Assembly: GCA_965248265.1 (NCBI GenBank)
Contig: CBDFJF010000002.1
Span: 3,232,001 to 3,296,000, forward strand
Reading direction: 5' to 3'
DNA length: 64,000 nt
DNA from: Candidatus Latescibacterota bacterium
GTDB taxonomy: Bacteria > Latescibacterota > UBA2968 > UBA8231
Shown here one piece after another: positions 21,299-26,265 of the stretch. Every line of letters starts with the position of its first letter. Positions within the stretch are counted from its first letter, which is position 1. The position numbers and the translations under genes are program-made. Below the pieces are notes generated by a model that was not told where the DNA came from, did no database searches, and was given only the letters and a program-made list of their open reading frames with translations.

Positions 21299-22195
21299 CT
21301 ATAATGCACAGAGCCGGCCTTCCTTCAGGGCGCGGCGCATTGCCTGCAACAGTCGACGGCTGTCCTTCATTTCCGAGGCATCCGTCTGCAGCCCTACTCG
21401 CTTGTCTGCGATGAAGTCGGTGATCCATTCCACCTCTGACCCGGTCGGGTTGGTGTCAATGACATGACGCTGGTCGCCACGGGCGACGACGATGTCGCCA
21501 TCCTCGCACCGGCTCGAAATCGTCCCTCCAGATCCCAGCAACCAGGTGTCAGCAAGCGTGCCACCCCGGCCAGGCGCCACGCACAATTGCGCGTTGGCGC
21601 GGTTGTGCATCGCCACCGTCACGGTTACGTGCAAGTGTGCTCGCCCACTTCTGGTGGCGCCGACGACCGTCCTCACGGCGGTTGATTGCAGCAACCAGGT
21701 GGCGCTGGCGAGCAGTTCCCACATCGACCACCAGGCGGCGTCCATGGAAGTTCCGCCACCGGCGACGCAGCGTGCATAGACGGGTTCACCAAAGGCATCA
21801 GAAGCCCTTAGTTGATTCATTCTCTTCAGTCTCGGCTCATGGCGTTCGCGCCCACCCCAACGAATGCGAGCGCCATGTTGTTCCGCCAGTTGCTGGAGTT
21901 GCGCGTTTTGCGTCGCAGTGGCTGAGAGCGGACCGGCGCACAGAACGTGGACGCCGGCACTGACGATGCGGCGGATGGACTCGAAAGCTGCCTGCTTCGG
22001 GCTCAGCAAGCATACCGTACCCGCGTCCGTCGATTGCAGGGCATGTTCAAGGTCAGGGAAGTGCTCGGCCAGGCTCGAGTCGATGCCGACGACACCGACT
22101 ACCGGCATTGCCCCACAAACAGCGTCAATGGCCGGCTTGTCGTTGCGGTCGCCGGCGAGGATGAGACGGCTGACCTTGGCCTTCCGTTCACTCAT
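21299..22195 (-). CDS. Divergent Gfo/Idh/MocA-like protein
   Basis: GVHVLCAGPL at the position of the GKHVLCEKP motif; FGEPVY; ATGA-coupled to the upstream Gfo gene. Confidence 0.6.
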   Translation of the reverse strand: MSERKAKVSRLILAGDRNDKPAIDAVCGAMPVVGVVGIDSSLAEHFPDLEHALQSTDAGTVCLLSPKQAAFESIRRIVSAGVHVLCAGPLSATATQNAQLQQLAEQHGARIRWGGRERHEPRLKRMNQLRASDAFGEPVYARCVAGGGTSMDAAWWSMWELLASATWLLQSTAVRTVVGATRSGRAHLHVTVTVAMHNRANAQLCVAPGRGGTLADTWLLGSGGTISSRCEDGDIVVARGDQRHVIDTNPTGSEVEWITDFIADKRVGLQTDASEMKDSRRLLQAMRRALKEGRLCAL

Positions 22196-23328
22196 GACTC
22201 TATCAAATCGACGGGCGCCTGCTCCACGATCGAACGATAGCCGGCGAGGAGGGTTTGCATGTTGTCGCGAGCCAGTTGAACGGTGTAAGCGGGCTCAACG
22301 TCTTCGTCCAGCGCTCGCACGAAGTCATCCAGACCACGGGAGAGCCCGGCGGTATCGCCGGAGACAGGGACGGAAACGGATGGCGGGCCGCTGTGCCATT
22401 GCATCGGGTCGTCGGTTGCGGGATGATAGTCCGACTCGACGATTTCAGCGCGCAGGAAGGTGTCGACTCCAGGACGCTTGGCCTCCACGGCTGCAGTGGC
22501 TTGCGTGCCCATCAACCAGGCCCTGGCTACTCCGCCTGAGGGATGAGTAGCGACTCCATTGCGACCAGCACACAGGGTGCAGACCCGGCCGGCGTCATCG
22601 ACGAGCGTCAGGGTCGCGAAGTCCTCGGCGCCATGGTTGGCATGTTCTGGGAAGAAATAAGCGTCGGCCTGGGCGTACACCTGCACGGTCGCCCCGCACA
22701 AGCGCTGAATCAAGCCCACACCGTAGGCTCCTACGGTGAGCAACTCGCGTTTGATGTCGTCGAACTTCCAGCGGCCTGCCGGCAGGAAGGGGGTGGCGCG
22801 CTGATCCTCCGAAATCGGCCGCGGCCAACCCTTGGCGAAGAGCAGGTCCACGTGTACACCAAGCAGATCGTCTCCAAGCTGGCCGCTGCGCAGGGCGAAT
22901 TCAGCTCGGTTGACGAGTTCGCCGTAGGCATAGCTGGGCACAATCGCCCTGACGCCAGCACGCTCAACAGCCTTAACGGCAGTGTCGCACTCATCGATTG
23001 AGGCGCCCAGGAACTTGTCGATCCACAGATGCTTTCCCGCTGCGGCGGCGCGACAGATCAGGTCAGTTCGGCGCTCGATCTCATGGCCGATACTGACGGC
23101 ATCGACGCCATCCAGTTCGAGTGCGCGATCGATTCCGGTGACATAGGGGACGCCCAATTGTTCGGCCCATCGTCGGTTGGTCTGGTCAAGGTGGCCATCG
23201 ATATCCGCTTCGTCGGCAACGGCGACGATACGAATTTGCGGGTGATCCTGGAAAAGGGGGACAAAACTGCTCTGATGACTGTGACGACTGAAACTCGCCA
23301 GCAGTACACCGTAGGTCCGAGTGCTCAT
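22192..23328 (-). CDS. Gfo/Idh/MocA family oxidoreductase
   Basis: IRIVAVAD, VDAVSI, AAAGKHLWIDKFLG, AEDFATL. Confidence 0.82.
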   Translation of the reverse strand: MSTRTYGVLLASFSRHSHQSSFVPLFQDHPQIRIVAVADEADIDGHLDQTNRRWAEQLGVPYVTGIDRALELDGVDAVSIGHEIERRTDLICRAAAAGKHLWIDKFLGASIDECDTAVKAVERAGVRAIVPSYAYGELVNRAEFALRSGQLGDDLLGVHVDLLFAKGWPRPISEDQRATPFLPAGRWKFDDIKRELLTVGAYGVGLIQRLCGATVQVYAQADAYFFPEHANHGAEDFATLTLVDDAGRVCTLCAGRNGVATHPSGGVARAWLMGTQATAAVEAKRPGVDTFLRAEIVESDYHPATDDPMQWHSGPPSVSVPVSGDTAGLSRGLDDFVRALDEDVEPAYTVQLARDNMQTLLAGYRSIVEQAPVDLIES

Positions 23329-23373
23329 GTAGGGAGGTAGATGGGAAAGGGTACTATCAGATGGTTACTCGTC

Positions 23374-23910
23374 TTACCACCTGGTGAGGTTGCCCATGAT
23401 CTTGTTCAGGTCTTTCTGCAGCTCGCTTTTTTCATCCTGCAGATCGCGGATGCGATCTTCGCAGTGTTGCACCGACTGCGCCATTTCTCCCAGCCGTTTC
23501 TCTAGCTCCGACGAGCGTTCCGACAGGGTCGCGTTCTGTTCGGTCGTCTCTGCCCGCTGGCGCTGCTTTTCGTCTAACTCCTGGCGCAGCGTGTCGATGC
23601 GGATTTCCGTTTCCCGCACGCGCCGTTCGGTTTCTGACTTGAGCTCCTCGCGTTCGCGTACCAGTTGCTCTTGCAGCTGCTTCTGCCGCTCCTGGAGCGC
23701 CTTCTCTTTGGCAGCGAGCTCATCCCGCAACTTCTGCGACTGCGCTTCAAGTTGTTGCGATTGACTGGTTTGCGTTTCAGCCCGCTTTTCCGCTTCCTGC
23801 CTTTGCGAAACCTCCATGTCGAGCATCTGGTGCATGCGCGCGATTTCATCACGCTGGCGAGTCAGCTCAGCCTTGAGTCTGGAGGCCGTCAAAAACGAGA
23901 GAATTCCCAT
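23374..23910 (-). CDS. Coiled-coil protein (178 aa) directly downstream of the MamK-like actin
   Basis: E/Q/R/K/L-rich continuous heptads, no Pro; short hydrophobic ends MGILSFLTASRL and LNKIMGNLTRW. Confidence 0.82.
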   Translation of the reverse strand: MGILSFLTASRLKAELTRQRDEIARMHQMLDMEVSQRQEAEKRAETQTSQSQQLEAQSQKLRDELAAKEKALQERQKQLQEQLVREREELKSETERRVRETEIRIDTLRQELDEKQRQRAETTEQNATLSERSSELEKRLGEMAQSVQHCEDRIRDLQDEKSELQKDLNKIMGNLTRW

Positions 23911-23963
23911 CTTATCTACTCACGCAATCCTTGAAGTGTTGTCCGCTCAAACCCGAAACCAAC

Positions 23964-25046
23964 CTACTCGTCGGCGTATCGACGCCACTCAGATTCCGGC
24001 ATGTCCTGCGCAAGCTTCAGTGCCCCGAGGGCTCCGGCGTAAATGGGATCATCAACGATGGTGACCCTGCAAGGCCCGAATTCGGACAGATTGGAGCGAA
24101 CTTCTTCACCCAGGCCTCGGATCTGGCTTCCACCCCCGGCAAGCAGGATGTTCTGTCTCAACTCGTTCTGGAATTCCGGGTCGAAGCCGACGATCAGTTC
24201 CTTGGCACTCTCTATGAGATCGGGTAGCACACTCTCGCAGGCTTCCCGCAACTCGTTCGTCAGGTCATAGGTGCTGGGCTTTCCGTCCACCTGGAAATCC
24301 ACCGCAATGACTTCCTTGTTCGACGAGACGAAGGCGTACTGTTCCTTGATTCGGCGGGCCATCTCCAGCGTGACCGGTGAATCGTTGACCTTTTCCTGCA
24401 GAAGCATATGGAACCGTGCATCTACGTAGTTGCCTGCCTTCAACAGCGTTCGCTGGTCGTCCTCGCCGGGTATGGTACCGTGCATGCAGCACAGGTCCAG
24501 GGTCCCGGCACCTATGTCGATGATGAGGGCGTTGTTGAATAGCTCGAGACCATACGCCACCAGAAAGGGCTCCGAGGCTACCATGGACACCTCTACCATG
24601 CTCCTGACCGCTTCCGTCAACGCCGCGCGGTCTTCCGCCGTGGCGCGTGCCGGCGATCCAATGACGGCACGGATTTCCTGACCCGGATTGGCTTCGGCCA
24701 TATCAACTATGTATGAGACCAGGTGCTGGATCGCCTCTGCCTCGCGATCAGACTCCGGCGCAGCTGCCTCCTCATCCTCGCTCGGCCGGTGTCTGAAGAC
24801 ACCGTGCTCAAGAGGCCAGATCATATCGACGGCCATCCTGTTCTCCAGACACTCGTCGCCAATGACGACCTGTTTTTGGAGAAACTTGTAGGAGATAAGG
24901 TCCTTCGGCCAACCCACTACGCTGGTAACCGTGCGACGAACACCAGTGCTCGTCACTATAAAACTCTGCGACGTCCCCAAATCGAGACCGATGTACAGGA
25001 TGCCATCATCCTGCGGCGTGGTCGCAGTCCGACCTTCTACGCCCAT
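23964..25046 (-). CDS. MamK/Mad28-family actin-like ATPase
   Basis: GLDLGTS (phosphate 1), SVVGWPKD, PLEHGV, AVIGSPAR, SEPF (catalytic Glu), DIGAGT (phosphate 2), PGEDDQRTLLKAGNYVD, IKEQYAFV, QNILLAGGGSQIRGL, GALKLA..P..W; these follow recalled MamK motifs much more closely than MreB. Confidence 0.85.
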   Translation of the reverse strand: MGVEGRTATTPQDDGILYIGLDLGTSQSFIVTSTGVRRTVTSVVGWPKDLISYKFLQKQVVIGDECLENRMAVDMIWPLEHGVFRHRPSEDEEAAAPESDREAEAIQHLVSYIVDMAEANPGQEIRAVIGSPARATAEDRAALTEAVRSMVEVSMVASEPFLVAYGLELFNNALIIDIGAGTLDLCCMHGTIPGEDDQRTLLKAGNYVDARFHMLLQEKVNDSPVTLEMARRIKEQYAFVSSNKEVIAVDFQVDGKPSTYDLTNELREACESVLPDLIESAKELIVGFDPEFQNELRQNILLAGGGSQIRGLGEEVRSNLSEFGPCRVTIVDDPIYAGALGALKLAQDMPESEWRRYADE

Positions 25047-25120
25047 TTGGCTATTGCTCCTGGAAATTCGAAGGGAGGGATTGGATGGTGCTAAAATGAC
25101 CTAATTCACTATTTCACAAC

Positions 25121-25166
25121 CAAATAACGAGCAAATAACGGGACCTACCCGATAGTTCAAATAACG
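25121..25166. repeat. Three direct repeats of CAAATAACG upstream of the MamK-like gene
   Basis: Copies at 25121, 25132 and 25158; TTGACA on the minus strand at 25184-25189. Confidence 0.75.
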
Positions 25167-25200
25167 GGGCGGACCCTGCGAATTGTCAAGCTCTTTTCAG

Positions 25201-26265
25201 CTAATCGATGATGGCAGCCGCGGGCAGGAAAGCGGTGGTAAAAGCCCGGCTCAACTCGAGAGTGCCATCGGCGATGAGCCCGCAGGCGACCATCTGGTCC
25301 AACAAGAGTTCCCAGCGGGCCGATTCCATGTGCCCGACGCCATGCACGCGGGCGGTTTCGTCGACGACGAGCGGAACCGACTGGCGGGCTCCCTCTCGCA
25401 AGACCTCCATGTCGATCTCCGGATTGAGCTGCTGGATGAGCGTGTTGGTTTCTTGCGGGTTCTTGAGGTAGTGCAGCCAACCCTCGACGGAGGCTTCGGT
25501 GAGTGCGCGCGCCAGGTCGGAGTGCTTTTCGATTATTTCGCGAGTCGTGATGAGTACGCTGGCGTAGGGATTGAATCCGGTGTCGGCTACCAGCAAGGCC
25601 CGCACCTTCACGCCTTGCTGGCGGGCGATGACCGGTTCGCTGAAGAGATAACCCTGCATCGCATACTCCGGATTCGCGACCAACGGCGTAACGCCTCCAT
25701 AGGGCACGACGGTTACCCCCGGAAAGTCGTATTTCCAGCGCAAGAAATGCGAAAATGCCGGGCGCTGTGAAAGGGCAAGGGTCAGGTTGGAAAGCTGTTC
25801 AATTGAGCGTATTCCAGAGGATTCATGGACGACGATACAACGGGGATTGATCTGATAGGGGGCCATCAGAGCGACCACGTCAGCTCCGGCGACCCGGGCG
25901 TTCAGGACTCCGTCGGCGTTGGTGATGCCGAAGGCGACCTGCCCGCTGGCAACTCGTTGCATGACGGGGGCGTCCGGTCCTCCTCCAAGTATCTCGACGG
26001 CAACCCCACGTTTGCGGTAAAAGCCGTTTGCCTGAGCCGCGTAAAACCCCCCGTGCTCGGCCTCTGGAAACCAGTTCAGCGCCAGTTGTACCTTCTTCAT
26101 GGGCGCGGTGCCATCTGCCTGCGATAGCTGAACGCCACCGCTGCCGCTGTCGTCGTCCGCGCACCCCCACAACAAGGCGACACATACGAGGATCCGACTC
26201 CAGCGTCGGGAGATCCAGCCGTTGGCAACAACCCTTCGCATGTGAAGTCCTCTATTTGTTTCCAT
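25201..26265 (-). CDS. ABC transporter substrate-binding lipoprotein, NMT1/THI5 (SsuA-like) family
   Basis: Lipobox LLWGC; LALNWFPEAEHGGFYAA; GYLFSEP; GFNPY. Confidence 0.87.
   Translation of the reverse strand: METNRGLHMRRVVANGWISRRWSRILVCVALLWGCADDDSGSGGVQLSQADGTAPMKKVQLALNWFPEAEHGGFYAAQANGFYRKRGVAVEILGGGPDAPVMQRVASGQVAFGITNADGVLNARVAGADVVALMAPYQINPRCIVVHESSGIRSIEQLSNLTLALSQRPAFSHFLRWKYDFPGVTVVPYGGVTPLVANPEYAMQGYLFSEPVIARQQGVKVRALLVADTGFNPYASVLITTREIIEKHSDLARALTEASVEGWLHYLKNPQETNTLIQQLNPEIDMEVLREGARQSVPLVVDETARVHGVGHMESARWELLLDQMVACGLIADGTLELSRAFTTAFLPAAAIID

Follow-up and report, generated by a model that had tools for sequence, protein, structure and literature searches.

A MamK-family actin gene and its conserved coiled-coil neighbour in a Candidatus Latescibacterota genome: a candidate cytoskeletal module apart from magnetosomes

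The stretch of DNA considered here, called the window throughout, comprises 64,000 nucleotides of contig CBDFJF010000002.1 from a Candidatus Latescibacterota genome assembly (GCA_965248265.1; positions 3,232,001 to 3,296,000 of the forward strand) and carries on its minus strand two adjacent open reading frames (ORFs). The first codes for a MamK-family actin-like ATPase of 360 amino acids (aa; 23964..25046), and the second, after a 53-bp spacer with no terminator-like site reported on the minus strand (23911..23963), codes for a coiled-coil protein of 178 aa (23374..23910), referred to below as the partner. An earlier note based on the letters of the window had proposed that the two genes form an orphan filament-plus-adaptor system positioning a cargo other than magnetosomes, and the gene sizes and the spacing it gave agree with the ORF coordinates.

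The 360-aa protein is a MamK-family actin by curated model, by fold and by its nucleotide-binding motifs. It matches the NCBIfam model NF040964 (MamK) with 419.6 bits (cut-off 400, E 7.7e-126) over profile positions 1-331 of 335, while the scores against the BeeR model NF053558 (202.3 bits) and the MreB model (58.4 bits) stay below the respective cut-offs of 530 and 293. Among solved structures, the HMMER search places AMB-1 MamK first (5ljw, 304.5 bits, E 8.7e-90, residues 15-359), followed by BeeR (8r2n, 133 bits) and MreB (44 bits). The AlphaFold2 model (predicted local distance difference test, pLDDT, 82.7; predicted template-modelling score, pTM, 0.81) finds the MamK filament 5ljv as its top Foldseek match (E 1.7e-36, template-modelling scores 0.82/0.91, 43% identity); MamK structures occupy ranks 1-3 and 5, BeeR is also near the top, and MreB and eukaryotic actins rank lower. 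The four motifs quoted in the earlier note are all present in the translation, DLGTS at residues 22-26, SEPF at 158-161, DIGAGT at 177-182 and AGGGS at 303-307, which we take to be, between them, the phosphate-1, phosphate-2, catalytic glutamate and adenosine motifs. Residues D22, G24, T25, P160, F161, D177, G179-G181, A303, G304 and S307 are invariant across a 37-row alignment, and the MamK segments which that note had listed as collinear were all found in the 5ljw chain, in the same order as in the actin. A branching with MreB is contradicted by the scores, 58 bits for MreB versus 420 for MamK, and by the position of the genome's own MreB on a very long outgroup branch. This canonical MreB is encoded separately (C2:3.416 Mb, 475 bits versus the cut-off of 293) and followed by MreC, and the window's actin is the one MamK-family gene in the assembly, where the genome scan reproduces the 419.6-bit score.

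Relative to AMB-1 MamK, the HMMER alignment, the conservation and the model define a variable acidic loop inserted at about residues 88-101 (24744..24785, minus strand). The acidic stretch PSEDEEAAAPESDRE forms residues 88-102, opposite which 5ljw has an 11-residue gap. The loop is the least conserved part of the actin (column identity 0.08-0.46, gaps up to 0.70), and the model shows no secondary structure at residues 85-96, with pLDDT block means of 71 and 55. Being both the least conserved region and a low-confidence loop, it is a poor candidate for the partner-binding surface that had been suggested for it and is unlikely to serve as a specific docking surface.

For the partner, AlphaFold2 predicts a single helix over residues 3-177 (mean pLDDT 94.1), which, if continuous, would correspond to a rod about 26 nm long, a length that derives from the usual rise per residue of an alpha-helix. 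This one predicted helix and the 3/4/7 spacing of the strongly hydrophobic columns sustain the description of the 178-aa protein as a coiled coil. Three blocks are conserved with column identities of 0.68-0.99, namely residues 1-42, 103-132 (around TLRQELDEKQRQR) and 169-178 (the IMGNLTRW end), and the spacers between them have drifted to column identities of 0.36-0.55, nearly free of insertions and deletions; among 29 chosen full-length members, 25 measure 178 aa, three 189 and one 176. Neither a Pfam nor an NCBIfam family scores above its cut-off for the partner, with Rod_CreS at 20.7 bits (cut-off 100) and SMC models at about 25 bits (cut-offs above 500), and in the protein atlas its best score, 0.90, is to unnamed clusters, with a recognition value below threshold. 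The family is small: 5.8 billion proteins searched by word index yielded 34 clusters, and HMMER run exhaustively over 1.84 billion representatives gave 60 matches at E<=0.001, 15 of these at E<=1e-30. The weaker ones, mostly long proteins matched in several stretches, are in our reading probably generic coiled coils. Homology to the neighbours of other MamK-like actin clades was considered and rejected, as HHalign gave a probability of 26.8% for the coiled-coil protein of Planctomycetota, 0.1% for the TPR protein of the sister clade introduced below and 2.6% for the 185-aa coiled-coil protein that follows MamK in Desulfobacterota loci.

Actin and partner are genetically coupled, both by adjacency and by joint presence and absence. 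Searches with the actin retrieved 26 loci from named genomes, 19 with an actin at least 70% identical and seven more distant; of the 19, 17 have the partner gene directly downstream on the actin's strand, both misses being at contig ends, and of the seven none has it. The gap between the two genes is 7-111 bp in 16 of those 17 loci, and the partner orthologues at the same position in other genomes are 47-66% identical; with the actin's E-value against the MamK model, this puts the pair well beyond a chance finding. On the level of whole genomes, the partner is present in 20 of 168 genomes of the phylum, that is in the window's own genome and in 19 of 75 others of the same family, and in none of 92 outside it. 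The clade actin (72-83% identity) occurs in the window genome and 18 others, all 19 of which carry the partner, and the twentieth partner match is a fragment of 41 residues whose genome lacks the clade actin; none of the 12 genomes carrying a sister-type actin (55-61% identity) has the partner. Counts per genus are equal for both genes except in genus g18 (4/10 versus 3/10), and in the patchily occupied genera (1/8, 1/31, 2/3) actin and partner are jointly present or jointly absent. As related genomes are not independent samples, the co-occurrence is strong but not statistical support; with 17/19 loci and 19/19 genomes, the conservation of the coiled-coil gene beside the actin that the earlier note had anticipated holds.

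The actin frame is intact in most of the 19 genomes (10 genera), some contigs being partial. In locus L027 (G011:C35), actin and partner are both truncated and about 2.4 kb apart, the actin stopping at about residue 152 and the partner lacking its N-terminal part; ORFs of 404 and 342 aa lie between the gene pieces and may represent an insertion. The actin of genome G021 (L012) has an in-frame TAG, the partner of G020 (L010) is split into two ORFs with one TAG, and the partner of L019 is frameshifted at its C-terminus, all of which may be decay or assembly errors.

Adjacency of this kind could also arise if a coiled-coil gene of unrelated function were merely co-inherited, with the actin working alone or with partners encoded elsewhere. 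All pair-bearing genomes fall into one family, so that shared ancestry could explain the adjacency, and the conserved synteny reaches unrelated housekeeping genes. On the other hand, presence and absence go together in the patchy genera, the spacing on the same strand is short, the pair stays adjacent in L014 and L023, where the oxidoreductase genes that elsewhere follow it are missing, and the partner accompanies no other actin clade, including that of the 12 sister-type genomes. Mere co-inheritance is clearly unlikely in view of this evidence.

As far as can be tested from gene content, the actin appears to be encoded without core magnetosome genes and the genome to be non-magnetotactic. The available passages of a recent study list mamA, B, E, I, M, O, P and Q as core magnetosome genes (PMC12713370). 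Within the window, the statement that no mam, feo or mreCD gene is present stands for the 44 ORFs, out of 62 in a crude gene list, that were scanned with Pfam, none of which belongs to such a family; the other 18, nearly all below about 175 aa, were left out of the scan. Over the genome, the best scores of MamA (92 bits, cut-off 200), MamE (150, cut-off 800), MamO (62, cut-off 800) and MamP (26.5, cut-off 300) fall on generic TPR, HtrA and PDZ proteins, the MamQ model has no match, and the MamI model has none either, which is uninformative as it is silent in all control genomes too. These NCBIfam models are geared to Alphaproteobacteria, the completeness of the genome is 92%, and the genome chosen as positive control (G041, which holds L025) is a poor one, its contig with the MamO/MamE-like match carrying flagellar, chemotaxis and HtrA-type genes.

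A replacement test consisted of tblastn of 76 ORFs from five magnetosome-type loci against the genome. Eleven of these match at E<=1e-5. The five actins among them all fall on the actin gene of the window, and the others are two FeoB, one DtxR-like protein and three weak partial matches (two HEAT proteins, one CDF over 112 residues); MamL, MamM, MamN, MamO and the deep-branching cluster proteins have no credible counterpart in the genome by tblastn. Among the query loci, L143 holds by Pfam a MamM-type CDF, a MamN-type CitMHS and a MamO-type Trypsin_2+TauE protein, its 79-aa ORF at the MamL position being named by size and place as it has no Pfam match, and L128 and L114 hold by Pfam CDF, PDZ-CitMHS and Mad23-like HEAT-repeat proteins. 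In L128, a 413-aa ORF that follows the coiled-coil genes was tried as Mad28 and rejected, being not actin-like (HHalign probability 0.2%). With the core Mam models below cut-off and tblastn without a counterpart, a full magnetosome cluster, which would have undercut the proposal of the earlier note, is not found in the genome. Of the cargoes it had listed, microcompartments are unlikely, because no PF00936 shell gene occurs in the genome while the control genomes were positive.

Upstream of the actin lies a candidate promoter and leader of the pair (25122..25189, minus strand), read from aligned upstream regions. TTGACA stands at 25189-25184, and three -10-like GTTATTT copies follow in the window at 25165-25159, 25139-25133 and 25128-25122. 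A CTTGACA box and, about 17-19 nt further on, a TTAnnTT-type box precede the actin in the window and in 14 of 14 orthologous loci compared, whether the upstream gene is an ABC-transporter gene or a divergent subtilase gene. After the GTTATTT copies comes a TGnAAAATAGnGnTTTAGG-like element, which recurs in a subset of these orthologous loci and may be an operator or leader motif; the genome contains 13 occurrences of CGTTATTTG. In the orthologous loci the GTTATTT-type -10-like copy is single, and as the triple is seen only in the window, the copies do not constitute a conserved centromere-like array, and their reading as a centromere was rejected.

With respect to transcription, contigs of three marine RNA libraries cover both genes, and one 618-nt contig of a relative (58 differences, 2 gaps) bridges actin, spacer and partner, which is only a hint of expression and co-transcription of the pair in relatives. 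Pieces 90-99% identical to the pair (window 23300-25260) turn up in runs from several studies (X5, X10, X18 and X19), which are metagenomes and metatranscriptomes of seawater and marine origin, and close relatives therefore appear to live in marine water. Only four runs, all from one sample, contain the stretch in full, and they may be its source.

The MamK-like actins suggest a large radiation, as a diverse actin alignment retrieved at least 477 MamK-like genome loci, mainly from metagenome-assembled genomes (MAGs) of Planctomycetota, Nitrospirota, Gammaproteobacteria, Omnitrophota and Desulfobacterota. The term orphan used in the earlier note thus overstates the rarity of the actin, all the more as two families outside magnetotactic bacteria are published. 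In a quick IQ-TREE tree of 101 rows, five of them magnetosome MamKs (four from Desulfobacterota, one from Rhodospirillaceae), the partner-bearing actins are monophyletic with a branch support (Shimodaira-Hasegawa-like approximate likelihood ratio test, SH-aLRT) of 99. They are sister to a second clade of MAGs labelled Latescibacterota or Gemmatimonadetes, the joint 23-row clade again having an SH-aLRT of 99, and with weaker support (80) both join a Nitrospirota/Gammaproteobacteria clade. The four Desulfobacterota cluster MamKs are placed in the opposite half, together with sequences from Planctomycetota and Omnitrophota, and the alphaproteobacterial cluster MamK is an unresolved long branch; the window's actin is thus not within a clade of cluster-borne MamKs as far as the five sampled rows go. 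The root rests on the very long MreB branch and is unreliable, so that no statement on ancestry is safe, the ancestral state of MamK suggested in the earlier note included.

These placements also bear on the idea that the actin has no function of its own, being what remains of a magnetosome cluster since lost or a gene displaced within a magnetotactic genome. In favour of it, one survey reports magnetosome clusters for Latescibacteria in its available part (Uzun et al., PMC7449369), the actin passes the MamK model and the genome is 92% complete. Against it, the searches of the genome yielded no core mam gene, the frame is intact in most of the genomes across 10 genera, the catalytic residues are invariant, the promoter-like region is conserved and the clade stands separate from those magnetosome MamKs that were sampled, and a relic or displaced gene is hence very improbable.

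The sister clade (50-61% identity; L015-L018, L024, L066, L067, L069 and L070) has a gene order of its own, with a MamA-like TPR protein, a small unnamed protein, the actin and a protein with ParB_N and HTH_ParB domains, and a HEAT-repeat protein nearby (examples are the TPR gene at L016:4603-5601, the actin at L016:5950-7050 and the ParB-like gene at L015:7129-7746). The TPR protein reaches 150 bits on the MamA model (cut-off 200) and the ParB-like protein 92 bits on TIGR00180 (cut-off 58), its ParB_N and HTH_ParB domains being assigned by Pfam; no other mam genes were seen in the sister-clade loci. This clade looks like a second uncharacterised MamK-like module, possibly directed at DNA.

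By extension, the pair of the window could be a ParMRC-like system for segregation or positioning of DNA or the nucleoid, which would be a narrower version of the explanation preferred below: the actin would push or pull, and the rod would replace the DNA-binding adaptor or link to one encoded elsewhere. The ParB-like gene after the actin in a clade joined to this one with an SH-aLRT of 99 speaks for it, as does a weak match of the actin to a PHROG 'partition protein' family (27 bits). Against it stand a partner without a DNA-binding domain, the lack of any relation by HHalign between the partner and the sister-clade TPR neighbour (a comparison in which the ParB-like protein was not included), a GTTATTT triple confined to the window with no conserved centromere-like array evident, and a chromosomal locus in stable synteny with no plasmid relative. 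Such a segregation system is unlikely. A defence, phage or plasmid origin of the pair was also considered and rejected, the matches being sub-threshold coiled-coil or ParM-like noise only.

Other MamK-like clades have further neighbourhoods. Desulfobacterota loci combine FeoB, DtxR/FeoA, MamK and coiled-coil proteins. In a KSB1 MAG (L026:3755-10545), two MamK-family paralogues lie side by side, one of which has 707 aa and is much extended at its N-terminus. After them come genes for Roadblock/LC7 proteins, two of which Pfam confirms (one with DUF4388), and for a small Ras/Arf-like GTPase. In a clade of Nitrospirota, Gammaproteobacteria, Acidobacteriota and Rokuibacteriota (L071-L082, L085, L087, L089, L091 and L106), the actin gene comes after one for a conserved protein of about 350 aa and, in seven of 17 loci, before one for a protein of about 424 aa; by motif reading rather than family scan, these neighbours resemble, respectively, an N-acetylmuramoyl-L-alanine amidase and a protein of receiver/SPOR type. 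For many Planctomycetota actins (L084-L141, for instance L094:6381-7930), the gene before the actin codes for a coiled-coil protein of about 264 aa whose C-terminal motif is conserved; ahead of it, some loci have a gene that is P-loop ATPase-like by motif reading, and in Phycisphaerae a different upstream protein has a C-terminal motif that looks similar to that of the Planctomycetota coiled-coil protein.

The pair itself is embedded in an ordinary chromosomal setting. The assembly comprises 7.32 Mb in two contigs, the window has an even base composition of 54-62% G+C, the locus is chromosomal and in stable synteny, and its nearest relatives are mostly labelled Candidatus Latescibacterota. Starting 45 bp after the partner lies a gene for a GFO/IDH/MocA-type oxidoreductase (22192-23328, minus strand, PF01408 by Pfam), which a second gene of this type (21299-22195, minus strand, PF01408) overlaps by 4 bp. 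The two are found downstream in most, though not all, orthologous loci, L014 and L023 being those where they are not beside the pair, and they are conserved neighbours whose membership in the module is doubtful. The pair's other neighbours in the window are housekeeping genes, namely those for ribosomal protein S1, TrpB, TrpA, GroEL, UvrD, a YceG-family protein, FliM, FliS, an ABC transporter, a subtilase of 1397 aa and several oxidoreductases.

Taken together, these observations are best explained by a chromosomal two-gene module in which a MamK-family actin and a dedicated, lineage-specific coiled-coil rod work independently of magnetosomes, a reading to which we assign a probability of roughly 0.6. 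By analogy with MamK, the actin would polymerise with ATP into filaments, and the rod, probably as a parallel dimer, would attach to these by at least one of the three conserved blocks, serving as linker, bundler or side-binding regulator in the coupling of the filaments to a cell structure. The nucleoid would be the leading candidate cargo because of the ParB-like neighbour in the sister clade, and the cell envelope would come second, on weaker grounds.

Several points weigh against this two-gene module. Contact of the two proteins and polymerisation of the actin are inferred, and two prediction runs for the complex of actin and partner, which scored 0.00 each without folded controls, have no bearing on binding either way. 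Pfam, NCBIfam and the protein atlas revealed in the partner no recognisable domain for binding a cargo, a membrane or DNA. As synteny extends to the flanking housekeeping genes (the subtilase, the GFO/IDH/MocA pair and a 1168-aa oxidoreductase), adjacency could partly come from common descent, and the pair is dispensable in its own family, as it is missing from 57 of 76 genomes there. The promoter rests on reading of the alignment, a consensus promoter scan not having listed its boxes; the contigs of the RNA libraries may include DNA and are no proof that both genes share one transcript; and with a completeness of 92%, a magnetosome cluster in the missing sequence is not strictly excluded.

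A more specific form of the two-gene module would take the 178-aa protein as a tropomyosin-like dimeric side-binder with a fixed length of about 26 nm that runs along a MamK-like filament and spans about five subunits, the subunit repeat of MamK being about 5 nm. The conserved ends would overlap head-to-tail and the central block would provide a periodic actin contact. The idea derives from the constrained length, the spacers that drift nearly without insertions and deletions, the conservation of the ends and the middle, the continuity of the helix and the strict co-occurrence with one actin clade; it is speculative and improbable in this detailed form, and if true would amount to a composite 'thin filament' in a bacterium.

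Beyond this locus, a match to the MamK model where no magnetosome genes were found implies that annotation by NF040964 alone would mislead. The clades of the MamK-like radiation differ in what accompanies the actin, a coiled-coil rod here, a MamA-like TPR protein and a ParB-like protein in the sister clade, Roadblock and GTPase proteins elsewhere and Mad proteins in magnetosome clusters, and the family would thereby be a natural experiment in coupling one filament to different cellular tasks. The pair points to a still uncharacterised bacterial cytoskeletal module and could yield a new principle of actin binding in bacteria.

Compared with known systems, the closest is MamK of Magnetospirillum (5ljv, 5ljw, 5jyg), which is of a common family with the window's actin, is 43% identical over the full length and has the closest fold and the same motifs. 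The window's system differs in that no magnetosome genes were found, in the additional 11-residue variable acidic loop, in having as neighbour a coiled-coil protein whose family is tiny and unrelated, and in branching apart from the five sampled magnetosome MamKs. The two-gene logic, with an actin and a small partner transcribed after it, is reminiscent of ParMRC; here, however, the genes are chromosomal without plasmid relatives, conserved centromere-like repeats were not seen and the partner is a long coiled coil. ParR is a ribbon-helix-helix DNA binder.

In Desulfovibrio magneticus RS-1, the coiled-coil proteins Mad20, Mad23, Mad25 and Mad26 occur with MamK and Mad28, and two-hybrid interactions are described in the passages available (PMC12748827). 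The likeness lies in an actin-like protein with coiled-coil proteins encoded alongside; according to these passages, the Mad proteins of RS-1 organise magnetosome chains and form a network, whereas here there is a single partner gene. Two MamK-like actins of non-magnetotactic bacteria provide a further comparison. Saltatorellin, from a member of the Saltatorellota that has MreB as well, forms filaments in Escherichia coli and Magnetospirillum gryphiswaldense according to the accessible text (bioRxiv 10.1101/817700); it comes from a different phylum, is compared here by description, and the passages in question mention no dedicated coiled-coil partner. BeeR of non-magnetotactic Verrucomicrobiota (PDB 8r2n), which has MamK as its closest known relative, assembles into a three-stranded tube and bears as its hallmark a disordered N-terminal extension of 30-50 residues, as stated in the sections available (PMC11929497), while the window's actin has about 20 residues before DLGTS, is 29% identical to BeeR in the fold alignment and scores 202 bits on the BeeR model, whose cut-off is 530.

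MamK has been treated as a marker of magnetotaxis and used in the search for magnetotactic bacteria; of 2798 MamK-like metagenome sequences in one survey, 227 lay on scaffolds with other Mam proteins, as far as the available text of that survey goes (Uzun et al., PMC7449369). Our literature search, whose reach did not extend to most subscription journals and supplements, returned no paper on this Latescibacterota clade or on the partner. MamK-like actins outside magnetotactic bacteria are already published, and what is new in the locus described here is the dedicated partner protein.

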